32,000 nt of DNA from Desulfobulbus propionicus DSM 2032 (lineage in GTDB: Bacteria > Desulfobacterota > Desulfobulbia > Desulfobulbales > Desulfobulbaceae), in assembly GCF_000186885.1 (NCBI RefSeq), contig NC_014972.1:2160001-2192000 (forward strand), given 5' to 3'. This document shows, piece by piece, positions 896-24,037 of the stretch; positions within the stretch are counted from its first letter, which is position 1; each line of letters starts with the position of its first letter. The notes under the pieces were generated by a model. It had not been told where the DNA came from. It saw only the letters and a list, made by a program, of their open reading frames with translations, and searched no databases. The position numbers were made by a program, and so were the translations under genes.

Positions 896-1561
896 ATGGG
901 AGAACCCTTTGTTGTCAAGGATTGCACCCTCATCTCCATTGCCACCGGGCAGGAAGCGCAAAATCTGCGCGAGTTGAGCGATCGGCTGGAAACGATCCAT
1001 CCCGGGTGCATCTACTATCATTTCTGGGGCGGAATGCTCCGCTCCAGTTTCGACGAACCCGAATACCAGAATGACTTTGCCGCCTGGGCGTGGCGCAGCC
1101 TGCACGACTCCCGCCTGGCCGAGCGGCTGGCGATCATCGACCCCAGCCACCATCGGGAGATGGACGACCTGCGGCGGGAACTGCTGGACGTGATCGAGGA
1201 GCGGCTGGCGGAAAGCGAGTTCGTGCCCTGGGCTCGCGCCGGACAGCGGTTCAAGTTCATCCGCTCGCAGATCCTGGTGTTCGATACCGGATGCCGGATT
1301 CTGAAACCGCGGGACATGGCCGAACAGATCGCCCGCATGTCGCTGGGGTCGATCTTTTACCATTTCATCGATGCCCGGCGGCGCACGGAGCGCGGCCGCA
1401 GCGATTTTGTCGAATGGCTGGCCAGCTTCGGCAACGGCGATTATGACGAGCTGATCAAAAACATCAATGCCATCGACCCCTATTTCACCACTCTGGCGGA
1501 ACTGCGCCGGGAACTGGCCGGGGTTTTCGACCGCTGTCTTGCCGAAGGAGGGACCCCATGA
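896..1561 (+). CDS. Conserved hypothetical protein made of two tandem ~100-aa repeats (possibly the DUF5752-type family seen next to glycosyltransferases; family name recalled from memory, not verified)
   Basis: AGGAGG (881-886) lies upstream of ATG 896. The stop overlaps the treT start (ATGA at 1558-1561). Internal duplication: FVVKDCTLISIATG...IYYHFW...NDFAAWA...IIDP...LRRELLDV aligns with FKFIRSQILVFDTG...IFYHFI...SDFVEWL...AIDP...LRRELAGV. Confidence 0.7.
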   Translation: MGEPFVVKDCTLISIATGQEAQNLRELSDRLETIHPGCIYYHFWGGMLRSSFDEPEYQNDFAAWAWRSLHDSRLAERLAIIDPSHHREMDDLRRELLDVIEERLAESEFVPWARAGQRFKFIRSQILVFDTGCRILKPRDMAEQIARMSLGSIFYHFIDARRRTERGRSDFVEWLASFGNGDYDELIKNINAIDPYFTTLAELRRELAGVFDRCLAEGGTP

Positions 1562-2793
1562 CCAGTGTACTCGAACGCTATGTCCCCATTGTCGGCGCCG
1601 AGGTCATCGACCATCTCCGCCATCTGGCCGAACCGCTCAGGGGCATGAAGGTCGTGCACGTCAACTCCACCCGCGAGGGCGGCGGCGTGGCCGAGATTCT
1701 CAGCTGGCTGATTCCCTTCAAGCGGGAACTGGGCCTGGATGCCCGGTGGGAGGTGATCTCCGGCGAGAAGGATTTTTATCAGTGCACCAAGAGCTTCCAT
1801 AACGGGCTGCAAGGCACGCCGGTGGCGCTTCCGTCGTCCCTGCTCCGCGCCTATGAGCAAACCAATCGCGACAATGCCGAGCGGTTGCGTCCCCTTCTGG
1901 AGGACGCGGATTTCGTCTTTATCCATGACCCGCAGCCCGCGCCGCTGCTCCGTCTCTGTCCCGGCCGCAAGGGCAAATGGGTGTGGCGCTGCCATATCGA
2001 CCTCAGCCACCCGTATCGGGCGGTGTGGAAATACCTGCGTGACGTGGTCGCCGGATACGACGCCTCCATCTGGTCCCTGGCCGACTTCGCCCAGCCCTTG
2101 CCGCACCCCTTGTACCTGATTGCCCCCAGTATCGATCCGCTCAGCCAGAAGAACCGGGAGCTGTATCCGGGCGAGGTCGAGGCGGTGTTCGACCGCTATG
2201 GCCTTGATCCTGACCTGCCGCTGATCACCCAGGTGTCGCGCTTTGACCGCTTCAAGGACCCCTTGGGCGTGCTCCATGCCTACAGGCTGGTCAAGGAGTT
2301 CACCCCGGTGCAGCTAGTGCTGGCCGGCGGCGGGGCGAGCGACGATCCGGAAGGGGAAGAGGTGCTGCGCGAGGTGCGCGAGGCGGCCGGCGACGATCCG
2401 GATATCCATATCCTGCTCCTGCCCGCCGATGCCCATCGGGAGATCAATGGCCTGCAACGGGCCTCGACCATTGTCCTGCAGAAATCGACCCGGGAAGGAT
2501 TCGGCCTCACCGTCACCGAAGCGATGTGGAAGGGCAAGCCGGTCATAGGCGGTGATACCGGCGGCATACGCCTGCAGGTGATCAACCATCACACCGGGTT
2601 TTTGGTCAACACCCCGGAAGGCGCGGCCCTGCGCATTCGTTACCTGCTCAAGAACCGCGACCGGCTGGAAGAGATGGGCCGCAAGGCGCAGTCGTTTGCC
2701 CTCAACAATTTTTTGGTCACCCGCCACCTGCGGGAATACCTCACCCTGATGATCGCCACCCGGCACAAGGGTGTTGAGCGGATCGAGCTGTGA
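1558..2793 (+). CDS. treT: Trehalose glycosyltransferring synthase TreT (GT4; NDP-glucose + glucose to trehalose)
   Basis: 411 aa. It carries the TreT motif series in order: VHVNST.EGGGVAEIL, WRCHIDLS, PSIDPLSQKN, ITQVSRFDRFKDP, DDPEG and REGFGLTVTEAMWKGKPVIG. It is translationally coupled on both sides. Confidence 0.9.
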   Translation: MTSVLERYVPIVGAEVIDHLRHLAEPLRGMKVVHVNSTREGGGVAEILSWLIPFKRELGLDARWEVISGEKDFYQCTKSFHNGLQGTPVALPSSLLRAYEQTNRDNAERLRPLLEDADFVFIHDPQPAPLLRLCPGRKGKWVWRCHIDLSHPYRAVWKYLRDVVAGYDASIWSLADFAQPLPHPLYLIAPSIDPLSQKNRELYPGEVEAVFDRYGLDPDLPLITQVSRFDRFKDPLGVLHAYRLVKEFTPVQLVLAGGGASDDPEGEEVLREVREAAGDDPDIHILLLPADAHREINGLQRASTIVLQKSTREGFGLTVTEAMWKGKPVIGGDTGGIRLQVINHHTGFLVNTPEGAALRIRYLLKNRDRLEEMGRKAQSFALNNFLVTRHLREYLTLMIATRHKGVERIEL

Positions 2794-3623
2794 GGGGCAC
2801 GAAACCACCCCGTCACGCCCTCCTGGCGGAGCTGCCCCGTTTCTGGGAGCGGGTTGGCGATGCGTCCAGCCGCTTTCTCGGCCTGGATTACGACGGCACC
2901 CTGGCACCCTTTGCCGTCGACCCCATGGAGGCGCGGCCTCTTCCCGGCATTGCCGACCTGCTCCGTGCCCTGACCGTCGACACCGCCACCGAGGTGGCGA
3001 TCATCTCCGGCCGGCCGGCGGCCGAGGTCATGGCCCTGCTCGACGGTCCGCCGGTCACCGTGGTCGGCAATCACGGCTATGAACTGTGTCCGGTGGACGG
3101 CGACCCGGTCATTCGCCAGCCGACACCGGAGCAGCGGCAGGGGTTGGACAACATTCGCGCCGTTCTCCAGCAACGGGGCTACGGCCGCGCATTGGAAAAC
3201 AAGATGGCCTCGCTGGCCGTGCATACCCGGGGCCTTGAACCAGTGACCGCCGTGGCCCTGGAACAGGAGGTGCTGAGTGAATGGGGCGCCTTTGCCCTGG
3301 ATCACGGTCTGGAATGCCGCTGGTTCAACGGCGGGGTGGAGATTCGCTGCATCGGCTGGCACAAGGGCGACGCCCTGCGCAGCCTGCTCGATCAACAGCC
3401 CCGCGGAACCCTGGCGGTCTATGTCGGCGACGATGAAACCGACGAGGATGCCTTTGCCGCCCTTGAGGGACGGGGCATCGGCATCAAGGTCGGCCGGGAT
3501 GCACGGCCGACCGCTGCCCGGGCCACGCTTGCCGACTGCGCGGCGGTGGCCGATTTTCTTCGCGCCTGGCGGACGGTCACCACAACCCACAGGAGGAATG
3601 CACCATGGAAACAACCCGACTGA
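2790..3623 (+). CDS. otsB: Trehalose-6-phosphate phosphatase (HAD superfamily)
   Basis: HAD motif I is LDYDGTL and motif IV is GDDETDEDAF; IISGRP is also present. The GTG start at 2790 overlaps the treT stop (GTGA). Confidence 0.9.
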   Translation: MRGTKPPRHALLAELPRFWERVGDASSRFLGLDYDGTLAPFAVDPMEARPLPGIADLLRALTVDTATEVAIISGRPAAEVMALLDGPPVTVVGNHGYELCPVDGDPVIRQPTPEQRQGLDNIRAVLQQRGYGRALENKMASLAVHTRGLEPVTAVALEQEVLSEWGAFALDHGLECRWFNGGVEIRCIGWHKGDALRSLLDQQPRGTLAVYVGDDETDEDAFAALEGRGIGIKVGRDARPTAARATLADCAAVADFLRAWRTVTTTHRRNAPWKQPD

Positions 3624-5101
3624 CCGTCGTCTCCAACCGATTGGCGATTGTGGTCGACCGCGAGCAGGATGGCCGATGGACCATCAAGCCCGGGTCCGGA
3701 GGTTTGGTTACCGCCCTGGGGCCGGTTTTGCGCGATCGCGGCGGCCAATGGATAGGCTGGCTCGGCTCCAATCTCCAGGGCGAGCTCGACGAGGCGGCGC
3801 TCAGGGACCTGCTGGCTCGGGGATCGCGGGAAACCGGGTATGCCCTCAAACCGGTGGAACTGGATGACGAAGAGATCCAGAAATATTATTTCGGCTTCTC
3901 CAACGAGATCCTCTGGCCCCTGTTCCACGACCTGCCCTCGCGCTGCAATTTCGACCCGGCCTACTGGACCGTGTATGAACGGGTCAACGCCAAATTCGCC
4001 CGGGTGGTGGCGCAGAATACCGATGAAAAGGAAGATTATGTCTGGGTGCACGATTACCAGCTGATCCTGGTGGCGGCCCATCTCAAGGCCATGGGGGTCC
4101 GCCGGAGCACCGGCTTTTTTCTCCACATCCCCTTCCCGCCCCTGGACGGCTTCATCCGCCTGCCCTGGCGCTCCCAGATCCTCAACGCCCTGCTCCAGTA
4201 CGATCTGATCGGTTTTCAGACCGTGCGCGATCGGCGCAACTTCATGGACTGCGTGCGCATGCTGCTGCCGCAGACCCGGGTGGTCGGCCATGGTCACATC
4301 GCCCGCTGTCTGACCCCGGAGCGCGAGGTCCTGGTGGGCGTCTTCCCGATCAGCATCGATTTTCGGCAATTCGCCGACACGGCGGCCAGTCAGGAGGTCC
4401 AGGACCAGGCATGGATCATCCATGCCAACCTGCCCGAACGGCAGTTGATCCTCGGGGTCGACCGGCTTGACTACACCAAGGGCATTCCCCTTCGACTCCA
4501 GGCCTTTGCCAATGCCCTGGAACGGTATCCGGAACTGCGCGGCACAATAACCCTGGTTCAGGTGGTGGTGCCCAGCCGCGCGGAGGTGCCCGAATACGAA
4601 ACCCTCAAGCGGGAGATCGAACGCCTGGTGGGCGAAATCAACGGCCGCTTCACCGAGGTCGGCTGGACACCGATCCACTACATCTACCGCTCGTTATCCC
4701 GGGTGGAACTGCTGGCCTACTACCGAACCTGCGAGATCGCCCTGATCACCCCGCTCAAGGACGGCATGAACCTGGTGGCCAAGGAATTTTGCGCCTGTTC
4801 GATCGAAAACAACGGTGTGCTCATCCTCAGCGAATTTGCCGGGGCAGCGGCCCAACTGCACAACGGCGCGTTGCTGGTCAATCCTTTTGACATCCGGGGA
4901 GTGGCCGACGCCATTCATCGGGCCTGCGCCATGGACACCGTCAGCCGCCAGGCGCGGATGGAAAAGATGCGCCGCTCCATCCAGAAGCACAACATTTTTC
5001 ACTGGGTCAATGCCTTCCTCCGCACCGGCATCCACAAGGATCTCAACCAGTTTCCCAGGGTGGAATTTTTCGTCCCCAAACTGGCTGCTCCGGCCATCTA
5101 G
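3605..5101 (+). CDS. otsA: Alpha,alpha-trehalose-phosphate synthase (GT20)
   Basis: 498 aa. GT20 hallmarks are [28 protein letters not shown] and LVNPFD. AGGAGG sits at 3591-3596. The ATG at 3605 overlaps the otsB 3' end by 19 nt. Confidence 0.93.
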
Positions 5102-8820: not shown

Positions 8821-8871
8821 ACAACAAACCGAGTGACTCGATCCAGGTCGCCCTTGGGCGGGGAGAGACTG

Positions 8872-11762
<2,891 letters not shown>

Positions 11763-11766
<4 letters not shown>

Positions 11767-13667
11767 GCGATCCGGCCAATTGGAGCAACAGGGAAATGGT
11801 GACAGACAACGACTTGGTCATTGCCCCGGATCAGGCCACGACTCTGCCCGGCCTGTTCCGCCAGCGAGTGACCCGTACCCCGGACCGGACCGCCTTTCGC
11901 CAGTTTGACCGCCAAACCGACAAGTGGCGCGAATATTCCTGGCGACAGGTGGCCGAGGCAATCGGATGCTGGCGACACGGCCTGCGCATCCAGGGACTGC
12001 AAAGGGGAGAGCGGGTCGCCCTGTGGCTGGCCAACAGCGTCGCCTGGGTGGCCTGCGAACAGGCGGCCCTGGCCGAAGGGTTGGTCGTGGTCCCCCTCTA
12101 CGCCCGCGACAATGCCGCCAACCTGGCCTACATCCTCAACGACTGCGGCGCGCGCCTGCTGGTTGTCGACAGCGCTGCCCAGTGGCGGCAACTACGGGGC
12201 TGCGGCCACGCCCTGCCCTCTCTGCAGCAGGTGGTCTGCCTCGAACACATCGACGAGTCTGGTCGGCCCGAATCGCTTTGGCCCGTTGCACAGTGGCTGC
12301 CTCGGGACCCGGTCGCGGACAACGGTCCGATCCTGCAATCAAACGACCTGGCCACCATCATCTACACCTCGGGCACCACCGGCCGCCCCAAGGGGGTGAT
12401 GCTCTCGCACCGCAATATTCTCTGGAACTGCTGGGCCGTGCTTCAGGTCCATCCGGCCCGGCCGGATGACCTTTTCCTCTCCTTTCTGCCCCTGTCTCAT
12501 TCCTTTGAGCGCACGGTCGGCTACTATGTGCCGATGATGGCCGGCTGCTGCATCGCCTACTGCCGCTCCCTCCAGGAGCTGGCCGAAGACATGCGGTTGA
12601 TCCGGCCAACGATCCTCATTTCCGTGCCGCGCATCTACGAACGAATCGCGGCGCGAATCGAGGAACAATTGGAGCGCAAGGGGCGGCTGGCTCGCTGGCT
12701 GTTCGCCGCCGCAGTCACGGTCGGCTTCCGATGTTTCGAGGCCCAACGCGATCAGCGAACGCCCACCCTGCGCGACCGGCTGATTTGGCCACTGCTGCGA
12801 CAACTGGTGGCCATCCCCATGCTGGAGCGGTTCGGCGGCCGGGTCCGGCTGGCGGTCACGGGCGGCGCGCCGGTGCAGGAGGGCATCTCCCGTTTGTTTC
12901 TCGGCATCGGCCTGCCCCTGGTGCAAGGGTACGGCCTCACCGAGGCGGCGCCCGTGGTCAGCACCAACGAACCGGCAAACAACCGGCCGACAACGGTGGG
13001 CCCACCGCTGCCAGGCATCGAGGTGCGCCTGGCCGAGGACCACGAACTGCTGGTCCGCGGTCCGGGGGTGATGCTCGGCTACTGGCAGCAGCCCGAGCTG
13101 ACCGCCGAGGTGCTGGATGCGGACGGATGGTTGAAGACCGGCGATATAGCCCGGATCGACCATGGATTCATCCGCATTATCGGCCGGAGCAAGGAGATCC
13201 TGGTCACCTCCACCGGTGAGAAAGTGGCGCCCGTGGCCATGGAGATGGCCCTGGAACAGCATCCCCTGATCGACCAGGCCATGGTGGTGGGCGAGGGTCG
13301 GCCCCATGTGGCGGCGCTGCTGGTGGTCAATCCCCAGGCCTGGATGCGGCTGGCGGCCCACCTGGGTCTGGATGCGGACGATCCGGCCTCCCTGGACAGC
13401 GATGCGGCACGTGCGGCGGCGCTCTCAACGGTGAGCGGCCTGCTCCGCGCCTTCCCCGCTCCGGCCCAGGTGCGCGGCGTCTGCCTGCTCAGCGAGGAAT
13501 GGACCATCGACAACGGCCTGCTCACCCCAACCCTGAAGCTGATCCGCGACCGGGTCGCGGTCCGATATGCGCGGCAGATCAACGAGCTCTACCGATCCAC
13601 CCGTTCCGTATCCCTTGCACGGCAGGGTGCCGCACCGCTGCATGATGAACAATCAGGGTCTCCATGA
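11763..13667 (+). CDS. Long-chain fatty acid-CoA ligase (AMP-forming, FadD/ACSL-like)
   Basis: 634 aa. Motifs are IIYTSGTTGRPKGVMLSHRN, GYGLTEAAP, GWLKTGDIA and LTPTLKLIRDRV. The start overlaps the upstream stop (ATGA at 11763-11766). Confidence 0.85.
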
Positions 13668-13745
13668 GCCGCGACACGGTATGATTGCCCCCGCGACATA
13701 CCCCTCGAGCCAAACAGTCCCTTCCCCCGTCCAGGAGAACGAAGC

Positions 13746-15467
13746 ATGAAAATTTCATATTGTCTTGTGATGATCGCAGTGGTCTTGGGCCTTGGCCAAG
13801 CCGTCCATGGCGCCACGTGCGAACAGGGAGAGCACACCCATGTGTGGATTGTCCCCCGGGTGGTGCAGGAGGGGACACCGGTCAGGATCATGGCGGTATC
13901 CACGGCCGAGCCGCTCACCGAACTGGTGTTGACCGATCCGCAGGGGCAACGGCAATCGTTGGCCGCCACGGCAAGTAGCGGCGGAATGCCGTGGAGCCTG
14001 ACGGCGGAAACGGAACCCCTTGAAAGCGGGCCGTATCAGGTCGAGGCCAGGACCCAGAACAGGTCGCTGGCTTGCCGGCAGATCGGTTTCGGGGAGAACG
14101 GCAAGGAACGGGCGGTCTGGGATGAGGCGCATGAAGCCTTTTATGCCGCCTGGATTGAGCGGATGTTTGACCATCCGGTCGACGAACAGCTGAGTTTTCC
14201 CTCGCTGGAACCGGTGCTGCGCGATCCTGATCGCAATTTCTTGCACAATGCACTGGGGTTGAAGGAAGACCAAGGGGTGCCGGCCAACCCGGATTGCGCC
14301 GATTTCCCTTATTTTCTCCGGGGCTATTTTGCCTGGAAAAACGGATTGCCGTTCAGCTACCGGGTCTGCAACCGTGGCTCGGCTGTCAAACCTCCGACCT
14401 GCAACCCCGTGGTCATCAGGACCGATTTCGTCGGCAAACGAGCACCATTGGCCACCTTCAAGGCGGTCAGTCACGGCTTGCTGGATGCGGTGCAATCGGG
14501 CAACGGTCGCACCGCGCTGGCCGACGAGGAGACCGACTTTTACCCCGTGCCCCTGGAACGCGAGGCGCTTTGGCCGGGCACGATCTACGCCGACCCCTAT
14601 GGGCATGTGCTGGTCCTGACTAAATGGGTCGACCAGACCCCGGACAGCCCCGGACTCCTCCTGGCGGTCGATGCCCAGCCGGACAATTCCATTGCCCGAA
14701 AGCGATTTTGGGAAGGGACCTTCCTCTTTGCCCCCATCGCCAGCGCCGGCCCCGGATTCAAAGCGTTTCGCCCTCTTGCTGGCAACCGTCTGTTGCACAA
14801 CAAGGAATTACCCAACTATTCGCTGGATCAGGCGTGGTTGAACCCCGATGATTTTTACGCGGAACTCTCCGCGCTCATCAATCCCCATGGTTTGCAGGCG
14901 CATCAGGCCTATGAAGCGACACTCGCCGCCTTGGTCGAACAGTTGGAAACGCGGGTGCAATCGGTTGAAAATGGCGAAGCCTATTTTCGCAAAGGCGGCG
15001 GCACCATCGCGATGCCCAAGGGTGCGGCCATTTTTGAAACCGTCGGTCCATGGGAAGATTACGCCACTCCCTCGCGCGACATGCGCTTGCTGATCGCCAT
15101 GAACGTTGTCCTCAATTTTCCGGAAAAAGTTCTTCACTACCCGCACCTGTTCAACCTGAGCACCACCTCCGCCCGGCAGGTGAAGGCCGAGATCGAGCAG
15201 TTGCATAGCCAGCTGATCAACGAGAAAAGCATCCAGTACAATCGCAGCAACGGTGAACCATGGGAACTGACGGTCGCGGATATTTTGGCGCGAAAATCGG
15301 CCTTCGAGATGGGTTACAACCCCAATGACTGCGTGGAGGTGCGTTGGGGGGCGGAAGAAGGCACCGAGGAATATGCGACCTGCCGCCGTCACGCGCCGGC
15401 CGCGCACGTCCAACAGATGACCGCTGTGCGCGACTGGTTTCGGGAAACCAAGCGGCCATCGCGCTGA
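13746..15467 (+). CDS. Secreted 573-aa protein of unknown function (no family recognised)
   Basis: AGGAGA lies upstream of ATG 13746. The signal peptide is MKISYCLVMIAVVLGLGQAVHG/ATC. The frame is long and uninterrupted, with 8 Cys in the mature part. It starts 78 nt after the acyl-CoA ligase gene on the same strand. Confidence 0.8.
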   Translation: MKISYCLVMIAVVLGLGQAVHGATCEQGEHTHVWIVPRVVQEGTPVRIMAVSTAEPLTELVLTDPQGQRQSLAATASSGGMPWSLTAETEPLESGPYQVEARTQNRSLACRQIGFGENGKERAVWDEAHEAFYAAWIERMFDHPVDEQLSFPSLEPVLRDPDRNFLHNALGLKEDQGVPANPDCADFPYFLRGYFAWKNGLPFSYRVCNRGSAVKPPTCNPVVIRTDFVGKRAPLATFKAVSHGLLDAVQSGNGRTALADEETDFYPVPLEREALWPGTIYADPYGHVLVLTKWVDQTPDSPGLLLAVDAQPDNSIARKRFWEGTFLFAPIASAGPGFKAFRPLAGNRLLHNKELPNYSLDQAWLNPDDFYAELSALINPHGLQAHQAYEATLAALVEQLETRVQSVENGEAYFRKGGGTIAMPKGAAIFETVGPWEDYATPSRDMRLLIAMNVVLNFPEKVLHYPHLFNLSTTSARQVKAEIEQLHSQLINEKSIQYNRSNGEPWELTVADILARKSAFEMGYNPNDCVEVRWGAEEGTEEYATCRRHAPAAHVQQMTAVRDWFRETKRPSR

Positions 15468-15551: not shown

Positions 15552-15590
15552 GCCCATCGGCTTGCCGCCGATGGGCATTCGATTCTTTTT
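15552..15590 (+). terminator. Probable intrinsic terminator for the 573-aa gene (may also serve the convergent MCP gene)
   Basis: GCCCATCGGC (15552-15561) pairs with GCCGATGGGC (15567-15576): a perfect 10-bp stem with a 5-nt loop. It is followed by attcgattcTTTTT (T-run 15586-15590). The 9-nt gap before the T-run is longer than ideal. Confidence 0.5.
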
Positions 15591-17988
15591 AACTCAGATA
15601 CAATTCGTCCAGCGACTTGAACAGCTGTTCGCGGGCGGTCTCGAACTCCTGCATCAGCGCGCCCGCCTGTTTGGAGTTGCCCTGCTGGATCAGCTCGGCA
15701 ATCTGCCTGGCCAACTGGTGCACCTTGGCATGCTGTGCACCGACCTCGGCAAAATGCGGTCGGTCGCGCAGGGCCTGTCCCTCGGAACCAAAGTACCATT
15801 GGCCGAACTCGCATTCCCGATCCGAGGCAACCTCTTCCGGGCGGAGGGCCTCCTTGCCGTTGAGCACCGCTTCCAGGCGGGAGCGCCACTGCATGTGCGC
15901 CGCCTTGACCTTGCCGATGTTGAACCGGGCCTGCTGGGTCTTGAATCGGTCCACCACCTCGGACAATCGTTCGGACAGGTTGAACAGATCGCGGGCATGG
16001 CTGGTGAGCTGCGCGCTGACAATGTTCATCTCCTCGGAAGCCCGGTTGACATCGACGATGTCCTTGCTGATCTCGCCGGTGACCAGCGAGACCTCGCCGA
16101 CATTGTGATTGACCTCCTGAATGCCCTGGGAAGCCTGGCTGAGGTTGGCCGCGATTTCCGCCGTGGCCACCGACTGCTCTTCAACGGCGGCGGCGATGGT
16201 GGCCACCAGCTCGTTGACATCGTTGATCACCGTTGAAATCCGTTCAATTTCATCGACCGTCTCGCCGGTCGAGGTCTGGATCGCCTCGATCTTTCCCTTG
16301 ATCTCGCCGGTGGCGACCGCGGTCTGCTTGGCCAATTCCTTGATTTCATTGGCCACCACCGCGAACCCCTTGCCCGACTCGCCGGCCCGGGCCGCCTCGA
16401 TGGTCGCATTGAGCGCCAGCAGGTTGGTTTGCTCGGAGATCTCGGTAATCACCTCGGTGACCTTGCCGATATCGTTCACATCGCTTCCCAGCCGGTTCAC
16501 CTTGTCCGAGGCAGTGGTGGCCCCCAAAGCGGCCTTCTGGGCAATGAGGCGCGCATGTTCGGCATTGCCGGCAATTTCCTTGACCGTTGCCGCCATCTGC
16601 TCCACGGCCGTGGCCACCGCGTTGACGTTGCCGGAGGCCTCCTCGCTGGCAGTCGCCACCGAGGCCATGTTGGCGCTCATCGATTCGGCGCCGTGCGCCA
16701 TCCTGGCGGACTTTGCCGTCGCGTCCACCGTGTTTTTCGACAATTGCTGGGCAATGGTGCTGAGATCATCCGACGACAGCCGCAGGCTGTTGGCCTTGGA
16801 GCCGAAATCGCGGACAATCCGTTCCAGCCGATCAAGAAAGAGATTGAACCATTGGGCCAGCTCTCCGACCTCGTCTTTCTTTAAAATTTGCAGCCGTTTG
16901 GTCAAATCGCCCTCGCCCTCGGCAATGTCCTTGAGCATGGTCGCCGTGCGCTGGATGGGCACGACCACCGCACGGACGCTCAACAACAGCGGCACGATCA
17001 CCGCCACCAGCAGGGCCGCGCACAGCCCGATCAATCCGCGCTCGATGGTGCGCATCTGCCGATACAACTCCGCCGCGTTGTAGACATAGGCCATGACCCC
17101 CACCTGCTTGCCGCTGAAATCCTTGATGGGAAAGAAGGTGGTGAAATAATCGCCGACGCGTTCCATGCGCACCCCGTCCCGTCCGCCGGCGAGCAGCTCC
17201 GCGGTGATGACCGCGTCGGTGGTCTGCCGATTGGAGGAGGAGACAAACACAAAGGCGTCGCCGACAATCGGATGCTTGGCCGCATCCTGCAGCTCGGTGG
17301 CAATGGCCAGGGAGGCTTTGTTCATGTACACGGCGATGTGCTCGTTTTCGTTGCTCACGCCGTACTGCACCAACGGATCATAGGAGGAGAGCGATTCCAC
17401 CGACCCTAAAAACCGGCTGTCGTCGGCAAGGATGGGCGCTATGCCGCGAATCTCAAACCCGCCCCTTCCCACCTCGACGCCGACAACCCGCTGATGCGAG
17501 CCTTGGTTGATGGCGGTTACCGTTTCCCGGAAGGAGGCCAGGTCATCGCTGGTGCGCTGATCCTTTTTCCATACCCGCAACAGGCTGCGGGCCGACGGCA
17601 CGTGAAAGTGGAGCCGCAGGGCTTTGTTGTCGCTGTTTTCCTTGAAGCCCTTTTCGATGGAGGCAAAATAGGCGCGGAGCTGCTGCCGGGCCTTTTCCAT
17701 CTGCTGATCGCCCTCATCGTCGAGCCGGCCCTGATGGGCGGTTTCATAGGCCTCAAGCACCGGCTTGGCCCGGCTGAACAGGGCGGCCTGAGCCAGCATT
17801 TCATTGGCGATGCGTTTCTCGCTGGCGGCGATGTCCGCCACCTTCGATTGGCCAAGCCGATCCAGATTATGCTCCATCAACCGCCCGATGGTGCGATCGG
17901 CCACCCCATATAAAACCAGGGAAAAGAGGATCGTGACCCCGGCAATCGGCAGTAGCACCCGCGGGGCTATTCGCTGGAAGACGTGCAT
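15589..17988 (-). CDS. Methyl-accepting chemotaxis protein: TM, periplasmic Cache-type sensor, TM, HAMP, MA signalling domain and a C-terminal CZB (chemoreceptor zinc-binding) domain
   Basis: ATG 17988 has AAGGAG upstream; the ORF-track start at 18036 is trimmed. TM1 is [19 protein letters not shown] and TM2 is [19 protein letters not shown]. The HAMP segment is [22 protein letters not shown]. The MCP hairpin core is [31 protein letters not shown]. The CZB motif is AAHMQW...[10 protein letters not shown]...AQHAKVH. Confidence 0.9.
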
Positions 17989-18264
17989 GCTCAGGCTCCT
18001 TGAATGGGTGTTGTTCTGAAACCGTCCCCAGACCACATGGACGGAATATACATGAAAATTGTACTGAAATACGAATGGATGTCAAGAAACGCGGGGCAAC
18101 GATTCGCAAAGAACAAACGCCGCCCGGTGCCACAGCGCGGTACCGGAATGATTCAATATCGTTGACGGCAGGAGCGAAACCGGTTGAACCAGCCAAGAAG
18201 CCGACGAAACGGTGGGCGTGGCTTCGGTGTCGCGGAGGGGGCGGTGGCGACTGCGGACGTCACC

Positions 18265-18305
18265 AAAAACGCAATGAGGCGCCGCCGGTGACCCGACAGC
18301 GCCTC
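18265..18305 (-). terminator. Possible terminator downstream of hydG
   Basis: On the minus strand, GAGGCGC (18305-18299) and GCGCCUC (18282-18276) form a 7-bp stem with a 16-nt loop, followed by auugcgUUUUU. The large loop and the 6-nt spacer weaken the call. Confidence 0.35.
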
Positions 18306-18355: not shown

Positions 18356-19789
18356 TTAGAAAAACAGATCGCGGCTCTGGCCGCTGCGGATCATCTCCAC
18401 ATTCTGGCGTGCTTTTTCCCGGTGTTCGGGTTTGGGCACCTTGTCCAGCTCCCGGTCCACCAGCCGGTACCCCAGGGCCTTGACCTCGGGCGAGGCGTAG
18501 TCTTCCAGGTATTCGGACAGGGTCATCAGGGCGTTGGGATGACAGACGTTCTTGATCTGGCCGCTCTTGGCGAGCGCCATGAAGCGATCGCCGGTGCGGC
18601 CGGAGCGGTAGCAGGCGGTGCACCAGGAGGGCACCAACCCTTCTTCCATCAACCAATGGATGATCTCGTCGGCGGTGCGTTCGTCGTTCTTGGCGAACTG
18701 GGCGGTCAGTTCCTGATCGACCACCCCGGTCTCGCGGCGGCGCTTCTCGGCCATGTAGCCGCCAACCCCGACCGCGCTGCAGGCGCTCATCTGGGTGATG
18801 CCGCAGTCGAGCAGATCCTTGCGCATGGCCGCGTTCTCGCGGGTGGAAATGATGATGCCGGTGTAGGGCACGGCCAGGCGGAGCACGGCGACGATCTTCT
18901 TGAAGGTTGGATCGTCCGGGATGTTGGGGTAGACAGCACTGAGATCGACGCCCTCGGCCGGACGGATACGCGGCACCGAGATGGTATGGAAGCCGACCCC
19001 GTAGGTTTTTTCCAGGTGCTCGTTGTGGAGCATCATCGCCAGGGCCTCGAAATAGGGATCGTGGAGGCCAAAGAGCACGCCCGCGCCGACATCGTCGATG
19101 CCGCCGGCCATGGCCCGGTCAAAGGCGGTGGTGTGGTACCAATAATCCCGTTTCGGCCCGGCTAGGTGGTATTTTTCGTAGGTCGGCTGGTGGTAGGTTT
19201 CCTGGAAGAGGATGTAGGTACCGATGCCCACCGCCTTGAGCTTGCGGTAATTCTCCACCGTGGTCGCGGCGATGTTGACGTTGACCCGGCGGATCTCGCC
19301 GGAGAGATCGGCCTGGGTCTTGTAAATGGTGCGCAAGCAGTCGAGGATGTAGTCGATCGGACAGTTGACGTCGTCCTCGCCCGCTTCCAAGGCGATGCGC
19401 TTGTGGCCCATGCGCACGATCTCGATGATCTCGTCACGGACCTCCTCCTGGGTCAGCTTGCGGCGCTTGAAGCTGTGGCAATCGTTGTAGGCGCAGTAGG
19501 CGCATCGGTTGACGCAGAAGTCGCTCACATAGAGCGGCGCGAACATGACGATGCGGTTGCCGTAGATCTCTTCCTTGATACGGCGGGCCACCTGGAACAG
19601 CCGGTCCAGGTGTTTGTCGTCCATCTTGAGCAGTCTGGCCACTTCGAGATGGCTCAAGCCCTCGAAGCGGGACGCCCGGTCGAGGATGGTCTCAATCTCG
19701 TTGTCCGGAGTATCGGCCGCCTGGGCCAGGATGGTCTCGATCTCCTCGGGACGGATGAATTCCTCAATTTCCATAGTTTCAATCAACAT
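18356..19789 (-). CDS. hydG: [FeFe]-hydrogenase H-cluster radical-SAM maturase HydG
   Basis: The radical-SAM motif is CVNRCAYCAY. The HydG-type C-terminal cluster region is WCTACYRSGRTGDRFMALAKSGQIKNVCHPNAL. ATG 19789 is preceded by GGGAGG; GTG 19804 from the ORF track is an alternative start. Confidence 0.92.
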   Translation of the reverse strand: MLIETMEIEEFIRPEEIETILAQAADTPDNEIETILDRASRFEGLSHLEVARLLKMDDKHLDRLFQVARRIKEEIYGNRIVMFAPLYVSDFCVNRCAYCAYNDCHSFKRRKLTQEEVRDEIIEIVRMGHKRIALEAGEDDVNCPIDYILDCLRTIYKTQADLSGEIRRVNVNIAATTVENYRKLKAVGIGTYILFQETYHQPTYEKYHLAGPKRDYWYHTTAFDRAMAGGIDDVGAGVLFGLHDPYFEALAMMLHNEHLEKTYGVGFHTISVPRIRPAEGVDLSAVYPNIPDDPTFKKIVAVLRLAVPYTGIIISTRENAAMRKDLLDCGITQMSACSAVGVGGYMAEKRRRETGVVDQELTAQFAKNDERTADEIIHWLMEEGLVPSWCTACYRSGRTGDRFMALAKSGQIKNVCHPNALMTLSEYLEDYASPEVKALGYRLVDRELDKVPKPEHREKARQNVEMIRSGQSRDLFF

Positions 19790-20040: not shown

Positions 20041-21243
20041 TTATGCCTGGACACAACCTGCGTTGTGCGGCTGCATCTGCTCCTTGTCGGTATTGACGTA
20101 GGTGTCCCGATGCTCGTGGGCCGGAAAAACGTCAAAATTCTCGACGATGAACAGATAGACCAGAATGCCGATGGAGATCAAACCAATCGACAGGAACAGC
20201 TCGCCGGCGGAAGGAAAGTAGCTTTCCCCGGCTGCTTCGGCCATGCCGGTGAACACCACGTTGCCACGGTTCAGCGCCACGCCGAGCACCATGAGCACCG
20301 CGTTGCGCACGATCATTGTTTTGGTCATCACCTTACCGCGCAGCTTGTAGCTCCAGAAGAAGTAGACCGGAATGACGCAGCCGATGGCCAGTTCGAGCAG
20401 GCACATGAGGCTCTCCGTGTCCAAGGCGAACAGCGAACCCAACTGGCCGCGGATGGCCAGGTCGGAAAAACGGAGCACCGTGTAAAAGCTCATCACATAC
20501 CCGGACCATTTGGCCAGGAAGGTCATGGCCGGTTCGTCCCAGTCGTGGCGGAAAAAGCGTCCGGCCAGGGCGGTCTCGCAAGTGACCATGGCCGGCCCGA
20601 CGGCCACGGCCGAGGAGTAGTAGAGGATCGGCAGCAGCATGGTCCACCACAGTTCATTGAGCTTGCCCAGGGTGAGCACGTACATCGAACCCAGGGACGA
20701 CTGGTGCATGGTAGAGAGGGCAATACCGCCGATGACCAGCGGCGCGGTTAGACTGGTGAAGAAGGAGGAAATCTTTTTCATCCCCAGCCCCTTGAACAGC
20801 ACCGGGGCAAATTCACACGTCAAGACAATGGTATAGAGCAAAACGCACATGTAGAGTTCAAACATGACCGAATGCTCGCCCCAGCTGAAGATCGGGTGCC
20901 ACCACCCGTACCAGCGGCCCAGATCCATCAGCAAACCGAAGCCGACCAGGCAGTAGCCGAGCCAGGCCGTGAGGATGGCCGGCTTGACCACGGATTTGAC
21001 CTTCTTGACGCCGAGCACATAGTAGATGCCGGCGGTGGTGAAGCCGCCGGCGGCCAGGGCCACGCCCAGCTTGACGTCGATGAAGATCCACAGTCCCCAG
21101 GGCCAGGCATCGGTAAGGTTGGTCATCTGCAGCCCGTTGACCAGGCGGTAAGCAACAATGCCGACGAAGATCAGCGAGAAGGCGATCAATACCAGCCGGA
21201 ACGGGGTCATTTTAAAGGTGAGACGATTGCCGTTGATGGTCAT
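20041..21243 (-). CDS. NrfD/PsrC/HybB-family integral membrane subunit (putative quinone-interacting anchor)
   Basis: 400 aa and highly hydrophobic, with roughly 10 TM helices. The N-terminal region is NrfD-family-like (TDAWPWGLWIFIDVKLGVALAAGGF). Its start overlaps the upstream ferredoxin gene stop by 4 nt. Confidence 0.85.
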   Translation of the reverse strand: MTINGNRLTFKMTPFRLVLIAFSLIFVGIVAYRLVNGLQMTNLTDAWPWGLWIFIDVKLGVALAAGGFTTAGIYYVLGVKKVKSVVKPAILTAWLGYCLVGFGLLMDLGRWYGWWHPIFSWGEHSVMFELYMCVLLYTIVLTCEFAPVLFKGLGMKKISSFFTSLTAPLVIGGIALSTMHQSSLGSMYVLTLGKLNELWWTMLLPILYYSSAVAVGPAMVTCETALAGRFFRHDWDEPAMTFLAKWSGYVMSFYTVLRFSDLAIRGQLGSLFALDTESLMCLLELAIGCVIPVYFFWSYKLRGKVMTKTMIVRNAVLMVLGVALNRGNVVFTGMAEAAGESYFPSAGELFLSIGLISIGILVYLFIVENFDVFPAHEHRDTYVNTDKEQMQPHNAGCVQA

Positions 21244-22046
21244 GCCTGCGGCCCTCCTGTGTTGTCCTGTTTACCCTCCGCAATGGCGTTGCGGCGTTTG
21301 TTGAAGAAATAGATACCGGAGAGGATGGCGGTCCAGCCGAGCAGGATCGCCGGCAGCTTGCTGAGAATCTGCCAGGTGTAGGCGGGCAGCGACTCCTGCG
21401 GCACCGCGGTCTTGAAGCCGAGCGCGTCGAACGGCTGATCGGAGAGATACAGCCAGGCGGTGCCGCCAACCTCGGTCTCGCCGAACACATGGTTGACATA
21501 GAGCGCCTTGTTGCCCTCGATCCGCCGGTGCGCCTCCTTGATCAGTTCATCGCGGTCGCCGAAGGTCATCACCTGGTTGGGGCAGACGGCGATGCAGGCG
21601 GGCTGCTCGCCGGCGGCCACGCGTGAATAACACATCTGGCACTTGGACACCTTGGGGAAGCTCTTGTCCCACTCGTACTTGGGGATATTGAAGGGGCAAG
21701 CCACCATGCAATAACGGCAGCCCACGCACAGGTCCGGATGGTAGACCACCGGTCCTTCCGGCGTCCTGCGCAGGGCGCCGACCAGACAGGACGAGGCGCA
21801 GGCCGGATCGACGCAGTGCAAACACTGCTTCTTGGCAAAGCGCCAGGCTTCCTGGCCGCTCTTGTCGGTCACGTCATGCTTGCTGACCACGGTCCAGTTG
21901 ATATCCACCAACTGCGCCGCCTCTCCCACGGTGGGTTTGTTGACCTCATCGTATTTCTTTTCGTTCCATAGCTTGCAGGCCACGGTACACGCGCCGCAGC
22001 CGAAGCATTTGGTCATGTCGACCAGAACTCCCTTTGACATAATCAA
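21240..22046 (-). CDS. HybA/FdnH/NrfC-type 4x[4Fe-4S] ferredoxin subunit with a single C-terminal TM anchor and no signal peptide
   Basis: There are 16 Cys in four cluster motifs: CFGCGACTVAC, CLHCVDPACASSC, CVGCRYCMVACP and CQMC...CIAVCP. The C-terminal helix is LPAILLGWTAILSGIYFF. GAGGGA RBS is present. The start is 16 nt after the hydA stop. Confidence 0.88.
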   Translation of the reverse strand: MIMSKGVLVDMTKCFGCGACTVACKLWNEKKYDEVNKPTVGEAAQLVDINWTVVSKHDVTDKSGQEAWRFAKKQCLHCVDPACASSCLVGALRRTPEGPVVYHPDLCVGCRYCMVACPFNIPKYEWDKSFPKVSKCQMCYSRVAAGEQPACIAVCPNQVMTFGDRDELIKEAHRRIEGNKALYVNHVFGETEVGGTAWLYLSDQPFDALGFKTAVPQESLPAYTWQILSKLPAILLGWTAILSGIYFFNKRRNAIAEGKQDNTGGPQA

Positions 22047-22062
22047 TCCCTCGTGTTCCGGC

Positions 22063-23664
22063 TCACGCCTTGTTTTTTGGGGTTAGATGAGCGCTGCGGT
22101 CGGTATAGGTGGTGTGCAGCAGCTTGTGGGCCATCTCGCCGTTGGGCTTGCCCAGATAGTCGGCGTACAGGTCCATCACTTCCTTGTTCTCGTGGCTCAG
22201 CCGTTTCTTGTAGATCTTGGCGTCGATGGTGTAGATGGACTTCAGCCGCTCCTGGCGCACCCAGTCGCTGGGCGGCACCGAGGTCTTGGGCTGACCGCCG
22301 CCGCTGATGCAGCCGCCCGGACAGGCCATGAACTCGATGAAGTGGTAGCGGGGCGGCCGGCCGGCCTGCTTGTCAGCGCGGATCTGATCGAGCAGTTGCC
22401 GGCCGTTGGCCAGGCCGCTGGCCACGGCAACGCGCAATTCGCCCACTCCAGGCACCTCCAGGCTGGCCTCCTTGACGCCCTGCAGGCCACGCACGGCGGC
22501 AAGGTTGAGGAGGGCCTCGGGCGGATTTTCGCCGGTGAGCAGGTAATACCCGGAACGGATCGCCGCCTCCATGACGCCGCCGGTGGCGGCAAAGATAACC
22601 GCCGCGCCGGTGCCCTCACCCATGAGCGAGTCATAGGGCTGAGGATCGAGTTTGGCCAGATCGATGCCCTTGCCCTTGATCATTCGCGCCAATTCGCGGG
22701 TGGTGAGGACAAAGTCGACATCGCGCAGTTCAGGGGTGCCGGCCATGATGCCGGCACTGTTCATCTCGCCGCGTGCGGCCTCGAATTTCTTGGCCGTGCA
22801 GGGCATGATCGACACCGAGACGATCTGTTTGGGATCGATACCTTTCTTCTTGGCATAGTAAGTCTTGGCCACTGAGCCGAGCATCTGTTGCGGCGATTTG
22901 CAGGTCGACATGTGATCGAGCAGGTCGGGATAGAAGTATTCGCAGAACTTGACCCAGCCAGGCGAACAGGAGGTGAATTGGGGCAGCGCGGTCGGGGCAT
23001 GGCCATGCCCACCCTCGCCGTGCCCGCCGGCCGCCTTGATCCGGTTGACCAGCTCGGTGCCCTCTTCCATGATGGTGAGATCGGCACTGAAGTTGGTGTC
23101 AAAGACGCGATCAAAACCAAGCAACTTCAGGGCAGCGACCATCTTACCCTCGACGATGGAGCCGGCTGGCATGCCGAATTCCTCGCCAATGGCGATGCGG
23201 GTGGCTGGCGCTGTCTGCACGATCACATGCAGGTTTTTGTCGCTGATCACCTTGAGCACCCGCTCGATGTCGTCGCGCTCACTGATGGCGCCGGTGGGGC
23301 ACCACAGGGCGCACTGGCCGCAGTTGACGCAGGTGATGTCGTCCTTGATCGGCAGGCCGTAGAAGCCCTCGACGCTCTGCACGCGCTCGCAGGCCTCGGC
23401 GCACTGGCCGCAAAGGATGCACTTGCGGTCGTCGCGGACAATGGAGGGGTTGTTGGGATCGATGGGCACGCGCCCACGGACCTGCACCGGCCAGGAGCCG
23501 GGAGCGTTGTACTGTTGCGGAGTCCATCCTTCGCCGCCGACTGGTTTGCCGGCATCCTTGCACCCGGACAGGGTCGCGAGGGCGCCCGCCATGCCAGCGG
23601 TTCCCAATCCCTTGAGGAAAAACCGCCGGGAAACCGGGAGATCGTTTGTGCTGTTATTGTCCAT
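22063..23664 (-). CDS. hydA: Tat-exported [FeFe] hydrogenase catalytic subunit (two ferredoxin-type clusters, H-domain and a fused small-subunit-like C-terminus)
   Basis: The twin-arginine leader is SRRFFLKGLG. The accessory cluster motifs are CILCGQCAEAC and CVNCGQCALWCP. H-cluster motif L2 is MPCTAKKFE and L3 is EFMACPGGCISGGGQP. L1 is the variant FTSCSPGW. Similarity to Desulfovibrio-type periplasmic HydA extends along the whole protein. Confidence 0.92.
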   Translation of the reverse strand: MDNNSTNDLPVSRRFFLKGLGTAGMAGALATLSGCKDAGKPVGGEGWTPQQYNAPGSWPVQVRGRVPIDPNNPSIVRDDRKCILCGQCAEACERVQSVEGFYGLPIKDDITCVNCGQCALWCPTGAISERDDIERVLKVISDKNLHVIVQTAPATRIAIGEEFGMPAGSIVEGKMVAALKLLGFDRVFDTNFSADLTIMEEGTELVNRIKAAGGHGEGGHGHAPTALPQFTSCSPGWVKFCEYFYPDLLDHMSTCKSPQQMLGSVAKTYYAKKKGIDPKQIVSVSIMPCTAKKFEAARGEMNSAGIMAGTPELRDVDFVLTTRELARMIKGKGIDLAKLDPQPYDSLMGEGTGAAVIFAATGGVMEAAIRSGYYLLTGENPPEALLNLAAVRGLQGVKEASLEVPGVGELRVAVASGLANGRQLLDQIRADKQAGRPPRYHFIEFMACPGGCISGGGQPKTSVPPSDWVRQERLKSIYTIDAKIYKKRLSHENKEVMDLYADYLGKPNGEMAHKLLHTTYTDRSAHLTPKNKA

Positions 23665-23983: not shown

Positions 23984-24005
23984 TATAGAGAATTAATTCT
24001 CTATA
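23984..24005. promoter_or_regulatory. Perfect 22-bp palindrome, candidate operator overlapping the predicted hyd transcription start
   Basis: TATAGAGAATT|AATTCTCTATA has 11-bp arms with no mismatch. It begins 3 nt downstream of the candidate -10 hexamer on the minus strand. Confidence 0.5.
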
Positions 24006-24008
24006 TAA

Positions 24009-24037
24009 AGTCTAATAAAAACTGCTTGATATGTCAA
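24009..24037 (-). promoter_or_regulatory. Candidate sigma70 promoter reading toward hydA
   Basis: On the minus strand: TTGACA (24037-24032), an exact 17-nt spacer, then TAGACT (24014-24009). This implies a ~340-nt leader before the hydA ATG at 23664. Confidence 0.45.

Follow-up and report, generated by a model that had tools for sequence, protein, structure and literature searches.

The 32,000-nucleotide (nt) stretch of the Desulfobulbus propionicus DSM 2032 genome analysed here (hereafter the window, in whose numbering coordinates are given) carries four successive minus-strand genes in its open reading frame (ORF) list, encoding an [FeFe] hydrogenase (hydA), a four-cluster ferredoxin, a membrane protein of the NrfD/HybB type and the H-cluster maturase HydG. 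The first three of these genes are likely to specify an [FeFe] hydrogenase of three subunits, bound to the membrane, facing the periplasm and in electron exchange with the menaquinone pool, a reading that we favour because the triad is strictly co-inherited, its HydAs fall into one clade, and leaderless HydAs occur without the partner genes. The operon is a further member of an enzyme type that was predicted over a decade ago and is biochemically uncharacterised, and our result is mainly a sound and refined annotation, not a discovery.

In sulfate reducers and syntrophs, the link between H2 and quinone sets both the energy that is conserved and the H2 pressure that can be used or has to be maintained. 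The only experimentally supported membrane-bound [FeFe] example that we found, Hyd2 of Syntrophomonas wolfei, uses a cytochrome b; the form linked to HybA- and NrfD-like proteins is far more widespread in the surveyed genomes, being present at 46 of 80 related loci. The predicted H2:menaquinone activity, lipid anchor, hitch-hiking of the ferredoxin and working direction are open to direct test in D. propionicus DSM 2032, since this type strain is in culture and its genome is complete.

The three-gene unit and its subunits

Scanning one genome per species gave 80 HydA-related loci, and at 46 of them hydA, the ferredoxin gene and the NrfD-like gene follow one another in this order on one strand, separated by short gaps or joined by 4-8-nt overlaps. 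These loci belong to Desulfobulbus, Syntrophorhabdus, many Desulfotomaculum-type and Moorella-type Bacillota, Selenomonadaceae (Selenomonas/Mitsuokella), Planctomycetota and one Deferribacteraceae genome, at least four phyla overall, and the syntrophs Syntrophorhabdus aromaticivorans, Pelotomaculum and Sporotomaculum syntrophicum are among the hosts. An arrangement seen at 46 independent loci in several phyla is far beyond chance, and the stop/start overlaps that recur between the triad genes suggest translational coupling. A preliminary description of this DNA, made from its letters without database searches, had proposed the complex and had named the absence of the triad from related genomes as evidence that would speak against it; the triad is conserved. 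The comparison supports that interpretation at the level of sequence, and complex formation, hitch-hiking of the ferredoxin, lipidation, quinone and proton coupling, and direction are what we infer from it.

Outside the triad set, 31 of the 34 remaining loci encode HydAs that align only from about residue 50-77, and are thus leaderless, and they have neither partner gene. The other three are two partial triads (L037, and L048, which ends at a contig end) and a HydA that has a motif for twin-arginine translocation (Tat) without a lipobox (L046). In a tree of the catalytic core (all trees used here are neighbour-joining, without support values), the 47 triad HydAs, comprising the 46 and that of the window, form one clade together with the HydA of L037.

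The hydA gene (22063..23664, minus strand), recognised from its ORF and from Pfam and NCBIfam matches, encodes a protein of 533 amino acids (aa) that is identical in sequence to ADW18050.1. Both its model score (TIGR02512, 484 bits against a cut-off of 406) and its motifs, with one variant in L1, place it among the group A [FeFe] hydrogenases. Large and small subunits are fused in one chain (Fe_hyd_lg_C 1.4e-92, Fe_hyd_SSU 8.1e-21), and eight Cys are available for two accessory [4Fe-4S] clusters. Compared with the reference motifs (L1 TSCCPxW, L2 MPCxxKxxE, L3 ExMxCxxGCxxGGGQP), L2 (MPCTAKKFE) and L3 (EFMACPGGCISGGGQP) are intact, and L1 reads TSCSPGW (22966-22986, in the region of HydA residues 227-233). 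The same L1 variant occurs in 80 of 120 close homologues. We considered it as a marker of the clade or as a sign of inactivity and ruled out both, since 30 of 33 non-triad relatives have it too, as does A. woodii HydA1 (PDB 7q4v); the latter is the reason why we do not take the motif as a sign of inactivity.

HydA is not a member of the NADH-dependent group A6 or of the clostridial type, scoring 590 against a cut-off of 765 with NF040763 and 436 against 900 with NF040762. Both alignments start only at model position ~132, and the scores lie below these cut-offs because the extra N-terminal cluster domains are absent. Its best relatives of solved structure are T. kivui HydA1, A. woodii HydA1 and D. 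desulfuricans HydAB, with homology beginning only at about residue 68.

The residues ahead of this core form a leader. Codons 1-35 (23560..23664, minus strand) encode SRRFFLKG...ALATLSGC35, that is, a Tat motif, a hydrophobic stretch and the lipobox LSGC with Cys35, in agreement with the Tat-lipoprotein pattern used here ([ST]RRxFLK, hydrophobic stretch, lipobox [LVI][ASTVI][GAS]C). A Tat motif ([ST]RRxF[LF]K) and a lipobox (LSGC, IAGC, LTGC and similar) are present in 45 of the 46 triad HydAs, and 44 of the 46 also have a clade-specific GGxGWxPxQY-like segment after the lipobox. Since the motif, the hydrophobic stretch and the lipobox recur in 45/46 proteins, HydA is probably a Tat-exported lipoprotein. 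The 533-aa HydA with a twin-arginine leader of the preliminary description is borne out by the SRRFFLKG motif and by the group A score; the lipobox, which that description had overlooked, is an addition to it.

The second gene (21240..22040, minus strand) encodes a ferredoxin of 266 aa with 16 Cys in four motifs (14/17/20/24, 75/78/83/87, 107/110/113/117 and 136/139/151/155), no leader, and a single C-terminal hydrophobic helix (residues 227-245) followed by NKRRN. Its 16 Cys, four motifs and one C-terminal anchor are those of the FdnH/HybA/HmcB type, and the leaderless 16-Cys ferredoxin with one C-terminal transmembrane helix that had been proposed earlier therefore stands. Pfam Fer4_11 matches it at 3.1e-23, the best relative of solved structure is FdnH (1kqf_B, 5.6e-40, aligned over residues 7-247), and identity to E. 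coli HybA is 33%. It is not an equivalog of HybA or HmcB: it has no leader, its alignment starts at HybA residue ~37-40, and its NCBIfam scores remain below the cut-offs for both HmcB (NF045715, 1.5e-83, 280 bits against 420) and HybA (NF008134, 2.8e-64, 217 bits against 263). The ferredoxin is leaderless in all 46 triad loci. A tail helix followed by K/R residues passes a strict hydropathy cut-off in 38 of 45 loci, and the remaining seven have the same ...YTKRR tail, the ...KRR... stretch being read as a stop-transfer signal. Because HydA has the sole export signal of the operon and the ferredoxin is leaderless in 46/46 loci, we propose that the two are exported together.

These features bear on whether HydA needs the other two proteins. 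It could act alone, as a lipid-anchored or soluble periplasmic enzyme that donates to cytochromes like Desulfovibrio HydAB, with the downstream genes serving some other enzyme. A lipobox would indeed anchor HydA without a partner, and outside the clade the membrane subunit is most closely related to proteins that serve formate dehydrogenases, from which it follows that the coupling module is not hydrogenase-specific. We nevertheless regard this explanation as highly improbable, given that the three genes are strictly co-inherited across phyla, that the leaderless HydA relatives never occur with the partners, that HydA alone in the unit bears a Tat signal, the ferredoxin lacking any export signal, and that the overlap of stop and start codons suggests translational coupling.

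The third gene (20041..21243, minus strand) encodes a 400-aa protein named 'Polysulphide reductase NrfD' in GenBank (ADW18048.1). NCBIfam models for HybB (1.4e-72), HmcC (4.2e-72, 243 bits) and QrcD (1.8e-29) all match it, and it is 31% identical to E. coli HybB (BLASTP E = 8e-43); its score with the HybB equivalog model NF008133 is below the cut-off (245 against 450), with the HybB site residues largely conserved. A sequence search of solved structures with this subunit gave no match. An AlphaFold model built with 40 sequences (predicted local distance difference test score, pLDDT, 84.8; predicted template modelling score, pTM, 0.82) has about ten long helices, and in a Foldseek search alternative complex III supplied the nine highest-ranking matches, its NrfD-like subunits ActC and ActF (best E = 1.9e-9, TM-score 0.73). 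Only two His, H180 and H233, are conserved across the 46 membrane subunits, where two haems would call for four ligand His, and a di-haem cytochrome b is thereby ruled out. Model and alignment together point to the haem-less 10-helix fold of the HybB/ActC/QrcD subgroup, which consists of two four-helix bundles with two additional helices and carries no redox cofactor.

The functional residues of HybB were taken from a 2021 review of NrfD proteins, according to which replacing R89, Y99, E148 or H184 of the E. coli protein lowers H2 oxidation, and were mapped onto an alignment of 47 sequences. These four residues correspond here to K87, Y97, E144 and H180; the K87 position is always R or K, and the others are kept in 45-46 of the 46 sequences. 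Of the HybB residues proposed to form the quinone site, D58 is matched by D56, D109 by D107, S129 by S125 and E133 by E129, each kept in at least 43/46. K194, D261, E284 and R326, of the other half-channel, are conserved in the family, and so are Y137, S182 and S183. The membrane subunit thus looks functional as a quinone and proton module of the HybB type, and the assignment of a 400-aa polytopic protein of the NrfD/PsrC/HybB family made beforehand is supported by the identity to HybB, the ActC fold and the conserved residues.

Proposed electron path, direction and alternatives

The following sequence of events would account for these features. HydA would be matured in the cytoplasm by HydG, encoded next door, and by HydE and HydF, encoded elsewhere, a step that we include because L2 and L3 are intact and hydG is adjacent. 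The folded protein would then be exported by Tat, probably carrying the leaderless ferredoxin as E. coli FdnG carries FdnH, and would be cleaved and lipidated at Cys35. Anchored through its C-terminal helix, the ferredoxin would rest on the haem-less NrfD/HybB-type subunit, at the outer face of the cytoplasmic membrane. Electrons leaving the H-cluster would travel first along HydA's two accessory clusters and then along the ferredoxin's four, and would reach a quinone site that lies towards the outer side of the membrane subunit. The protons for quinone reduction would be drawn through the conserved HybB-type channel, which would make H2 oxidation electrogenic, and in the reverse mode the proton-motive force would drive H2 formation from menaquinol. 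With H+/H2 at about -414 mV and menaquinone at about -74 mV, the oxidation of H2 is strongly exergonic, and it could be coupled to a separation of charge or to the uptake of protons by way of the conserved channel, as has been argued for hydrogenase 2 and Qrc.

We take the enzyme to be reversible because its hosts include syntrophs as well as H2-using sulfate reducers and selenomonads. In D. propionicus the main direction is more likely H2 uptake feeding sulfate reduction; the reverse, H2-evolving direction is plausible in the syntrophs Syntrophorhabdus, Pelotomaculum and Sporotomaculum. A possible, if doubtful, alternative is that H2 evolution is the main job of the same complex. In that case the NrfD-type subunit would reoxidise menaquinol formed in the oxidation of propionate, succinate or lactate, and proton reduction on the outside would draw on the proton-motive force, in a reverse quinone loop as proposed for syntrophs. 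The presence of the operon in the known syntrophs Syntrophorhabdus aromaticivorans, Pelotomaculum and Sporotomaculum syntrophicum agrees with this, and [FeFe] enzymes are often biased towards H2 production. Moreover, S. wolfei Hyd2, which has been modelled as a menaquinol oxidase, is upregulated about 20-fold in syntrophic butyrate growth, and a 2026 preprint describes HybAB-type modules as spending proton-motive force to make H2 or formate from menaquinol. However, H2-consuming sulfate reducers and Selenomonadaceae carry the operon no less than the syntrophs do, and sequence does not set a direction for this alternative either. D. propionicus itself grows with H2 and sulfate.

Several points weigh against a quinone-linked complex with H2 uptake as its role. 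We found no experimental datum for a HydA/HybA-like/NrfD-like complex in any organism, and the sequence sets no direction. In HydA, the Ser of L1 stands in the place of Cys300 in C. pasteurianum CpI, which ligates the [4Fe-4S] subcluster. The contig L037 (a metagenome-assembled genome; 1379-5686) encodes a HydA with Tat motif and lipobox and a ferredoxin, and has no detectable NrfD gene in the 1.8 kb after the ferredoxin gene. Both partner subunits are relatives, not orthologues, of HybA/HybB and HmcB/HmcC, because their scores lie under the NCBIfam equivalog cut-offs. The Pfam NrfD model (PF03916) gave no match to the membrane protein of the window, even at E <= 1; precomputed PF03916 matches exist for homologues 79-86% identical to it (P0129, P0135, P0137 and P0140) and for nearly all more distant ones. 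Finally, the HmcB/HmcC scores equal the HybA/HybB scores, and in the Hmc complex the module belongs to a transmembrane electron conduit, not to a simple quinone reductase.

This last point raises the alternative that the ferredoxin and the NrfD-type protein form a transmembrane conduit of the Hmc/Tmc kind, passing electrons from H2 to a cytoplasmic acceptor without free menaquinone. Among the NCBIfam matches, HmcB (280 bits) and HmcC (243 bits) rank first or share first place, and a D. ruminis-type locus has a DsrMK-like pair (Nitrate_red_gam and a CCG-domain protein) immediately upstream of its triad. The conserved unit, however, contains no gene for an HmcDEF-like protein, a cytochrome b or a cytoplasmic CCG protein, only the three genes travelling together, and the proposed quinone-site residues of HybB are conserved. 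A haem-less NrfD subunit, moreover, has no cofactor to take electrons across the membrane. We therefore consider a conduit improbable and retain exchange with the menaquinone pool as the more likely function of the proposed complex.

Comparison with known hydrogenases and formate dehydrogenases

The closest precedent is a three-gene 'membrane-associated [FeFe] hydrogenase', read as extracellular, in which the catalytic subunit bears a Tat motif and the membrane subunit has 10 helices. It was described in the genome papers of Desulfotomaculum ruminis, D. nigrificans and D. gibsoniae (2012-2014) for the loci Desru_3431-3433, Desru_0447-0445, DesniDRAFT_1068-1070 and Desgi_0926-0928, from genome analysis only. 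We confirmed that a D. ruminis hydA adjoins a Fer4_11 gene and a PF03916 NrfD gene. The Desulfotomaculum loci have the same three genes in the same order as the window, their HydAs belong to the same clade, and identities are 60-70% for HydA (with Tat motif and lipobox), 53-58% for the ferredoxin and 40-46% for the NrfD-type protein. They differ in their hosts, monoderm Bacillota as opposed to a diderm member of the Desulfobacterota, in that hydG is attached to the operon in the window, and in the membrane subunit, which in the window groups with NrfD proteins linked to formate dehydrogenase and not with those linked to hydrogenase in Bacillota. Our reading also departs from the published ones on two points: the membrane subunit was called 'orthologous to cytochrome b', a wording that goes back to the legacy name of HybB, 'b-type cytochrome subunit', whereas our data point to a haem-less NrfD protein; and the leader was suggested in the D. 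ruminis paper to be an uncleaved membrane helix, whereas our data point to a lipoprotein signal.

At the D. ruminis-type locus (L084:1-1000), a LysR regulator gene separates the triad from the DsrMK-like pair, which is encoded just upstream on the opposite strand and consists of a Nitrate_red_gam membrane protein and a CCG-domain iron-sulfur protein. The pair is a possible menaquinol-oxidising partner; a further Fe_hyd_lg_C gene is located downstream. Membrane-associated [FeFe] hydrogenases of sulfate reducers were reportedly first described on a comparative basis by Pereira et al. in 2011.

E. coli hydrogenase 2 (HybOABC) resembles the proposed complex in its tail-anchored HybA (33% identity), its haem-less 10-helix HybB (31%), its periplasm-facing active site, its export by Tat and the conservation of the functional HybB residues. 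It differs in its catalytic part, where [NiFe] large and small subunits, unrelated to HydA, take the place of the [FeFe] enzyme, and in that HybA has its own Tat leader whereas the ferredoxin of the window has none. Co-export of a leaderless subunit is known from E. coli FdnGH.

Desulfovibrio HydAB (PDB 1hfe and related entries) shares with HydA the M2-type core, made up of two accessory clusters, the H-domain and the small-subunit segment (E ~1e-105 to 1e-122), and is periplasmic and Tat-exported, as HydA is predicted to be. It is a soluble heterodimer with the Tat signal on its small subunit, and it donates to cytochrome c3. HydA, in contrast, is a fused protein with an N-terminal signal that includes a lipobox, has the clade-specific 30-aa segment, and is encoded alongside membrane partners.

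S. wolfei Hyd2ABC is, like the proposed complex, Tat-exported, outward-facing, membrane-bound and of the [FeFe] type, with a proposed coupling to menaquinone, and it has been documented by in-gel activity, by detection of its three subunits in membranes by mass spectrometry and by an approximately 20-fold induction in syntrophy. To recover loci of this type we used the published hyd2ABC primers, which match with 0-3 mismatches. The hydIIA primer led to two metagenome loci (L082 and L083) in which all six hyd2ABC primer sites lie within 1.6 kb; the hydIIC primer gave no match in metagenomes. The large subunit at these loci is leaderless and has 387 aa, the small subunit (135 aa) bears the Tat signal, and the membrane subunit is a 220-aa cytochrome b561 (PF01292); neither locus contains a homologue of the four-cluster ferredoxin or of the NrfD-like protein. 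The window differs in its fused HydA with an N-terminal signal and in having no PF01292 protein. Hyd2 was accordingly ruled out as the same complex, being of the HydAB type with a separate small subunit and a cytochrome b561; by its gene content it is a Desulfovibrio-type HydAB placed on a true cytochrome b, another solution to the same problem. In L083 (6172-8444) the gene for the large subunit is broken into two ORFs (195 and 196 aa) that do not share a frame, which may be a frameshift or an assembly error, and it is intact (387 aa) in L082 (1549-3817). The quinone-dependent membrane hydrogenase of Thermacetogenium phaeum was also rejected as a member of the same type, as the genome paper calls Tph_c06350-06370 [NiFeSe].

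The coupling module has its nearest relatives in operons for formate dehydrogenase. Beyond Desulfobulbus and Syntrophorhabdus, the proteins closest to the membrane subunit (P0152 and P0153, 54-57% identity) are encoded in such operons (L086:1152-7312 and L087:1163-7270), which contain genes for FdhA, a Fer4_11 ferredoxin, NrfD and FdhE, with TatA in L086. None of the hydrogenase-linked membrane subunits of Bacillota is as close. Formate dehydrogenases of Calderihabitans maritimus, D. gibsoniae (Desgi_1522-1524) and Pelotomaculum schinkii (Fdn1) are further examples with a HybA/HybB-type module. As in the window, the ferredoxin in these operons is leaderless and has the same tail anchor, and a Tat signal is found on the catalytic subunit only; the catalytic subunit, however, is a molybdopterin protein, and its Tat leader has no lipobox. 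In a tree rooted on E. coli HybB, the NrfD proteins linked to formate dehydrogenase group with those of Desulfobulbus and Syntrophorhabdus to the exclusion of the hydrogenase-linked ones of Bacillota, and in the ferredoxin tree the proteins of hydrogenase and formate dehydrogenase operons are intermixed. This suggests, as a lead only, that the module has moved between the two kinds of operon.

No [FeFe] hydrogenase figures among the NrfD-containing complexes listed in a 2021 review. The preliminary description knew of no biochemical characterisation of this subunit combination, and we likewise found none; the enzyme type itself, though, had already been predicted in the genome papers of 2012-2014. 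Similarly, the novelty implied there for a membrane-bound, quinone-linked [FeFe] hydrogenase does not hold in general, S. wolfei Hyd2 having been shown experimentally, but the membrane subunit of Hyd2 is a different one. We judge it an evenly balanced question whether the clade of Tat-lipoprotein HydAs with HybA/HybB-type partners amounts to a distinct, widespread and biochemically untouched class of respiratory [FeFe] hydrogenases, an iron-only counterpart of E. coli hydrogenase 2 that would couple H2/2H+ to menaquinone electrogenically in either direction and whose ferredoxin/NrfD module would have been swapped between periplasmic formate dehydrogenases and hydrogenases.

Operon limits, upstream region and neighbouring genes

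The ORF list bears out the three tightly packed minus-strand genes and the 4-nt overlap (ATGA) between the stop codon of the ferredoxin gene and the start codon of the membrane-protein gene that had been described. Two of the start codons were refined. A ferredoxin of 268 aa would begin at a TTG (22046), which leaves next to no space for a ribosome-binding site; the ATG at 22040 has a GAGGGA ribosome-binding site 7-8 nt ahead of it, and relatives begin with MSKGV. On account of this spacing and of the starts of the relatives, the 266-aa form is the likely product, leaving a gap of 22 nt to hydA; the 16 nt given in the preliminary description apply to the TTG start. The maturase gene hydG (18356..19789, minus strand), encoding a radical-SAM protein that scores 630 bits against a cut-off of 312 with TIGR03955, extends as an ORF to 19804, from where the distance of 236 nt stated earlier is correct. 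Its true start is likely the ATG at 19789, behind GGGAGG, and the gap to the membrane-protein gene would then be 251 nt.

The hydG gene adjoins the triad in 10 of 10 related Desulfobulbus loci and in no other taxon surveyed. No hydE or hydF was found among the large ORFs scanned in the window, in line with the earlier statement that both are absent from it. After hydG, a consensus scan detected a terminator-like hairpin (18276..18305, minus strand; 13 pairs, 10 of them G-C), and the same kind of scan showed no hairpin of similar strength in the interval between the membrane-protein gene and hydG. The hairpin after hydG is the likely end of the transcription unit.

Upstream, a promoter-like site (TTGACA-17 nt-TAGACT; 24009..24037, minus strand; 10/12 in a consensus scan) lies about 345 nt ahead of hydA, and its TTGACA and -10 region are kept in 11 of 11 Desulfobulbus loci despite differing upstream genes. 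Four nt after the -10 hexamer there is a perfect 22-bp palindrome, TATAGAGAATTAATTCTCTATA (23984..24005, no strand assigned), which occurs once in the window, where 0 matches are expected by chance, and has 0-3 mismatches across the 11/11 Desulfobulbus loci. Eight of the 10 related Desulfobulbus loci contain an exact copy of its 15-nt core, a single one in each and always upstream of hydA, and the core has no match in any non-Desulfobulbus taxon among the loci searched. Lying over the predicted transcription start of hydA, the palindrome is a candidate operator; it is unlike the Rex operator. Rfam showed no known RNA element in the window, the 345-nt hydA leader included.

The genes that precede the triad vary. 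In six related Desulfobulbus genomes (L001:25-5536; L002-L004, L009 and L043) four extra genes are found there, for HydF, HydE, a 694-aa sensory-type [FeFe] hydrogenase-like protein with an H-domain, an extra iron-sulfur motif and a weak PAS match, and a PP2C/SpoIIE phosphatase; this group is a candidate H2-sensing module. In the window, L006 and L007, a ppsR-like gene and a gene for an FAD oxidoreductase occupy the position of the four-gene group.

Directly downstream of hydG (15589-18036) an 815-aa methyl-accepting chemotaxis protein is encoded, with a HAMP domain and a C-terminal zinc-binding CZB domain. A three-gene group on the plus strand (8833-15467) encodes a 977-aa protein with carrier (PP-binding), AMP-binding and acyltransferase domains, a 634-aa AMP-binding enzyme and a 573-aa protein with no Pfam match, and may be a lipid or acyl-modification cluster. 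Three successive trehalose-synthesis genes, for a TreT-type synthase, a trehalose phosphatase and a family 20 glycosyltransferase (OtsA-like), are located at 1558-5101.

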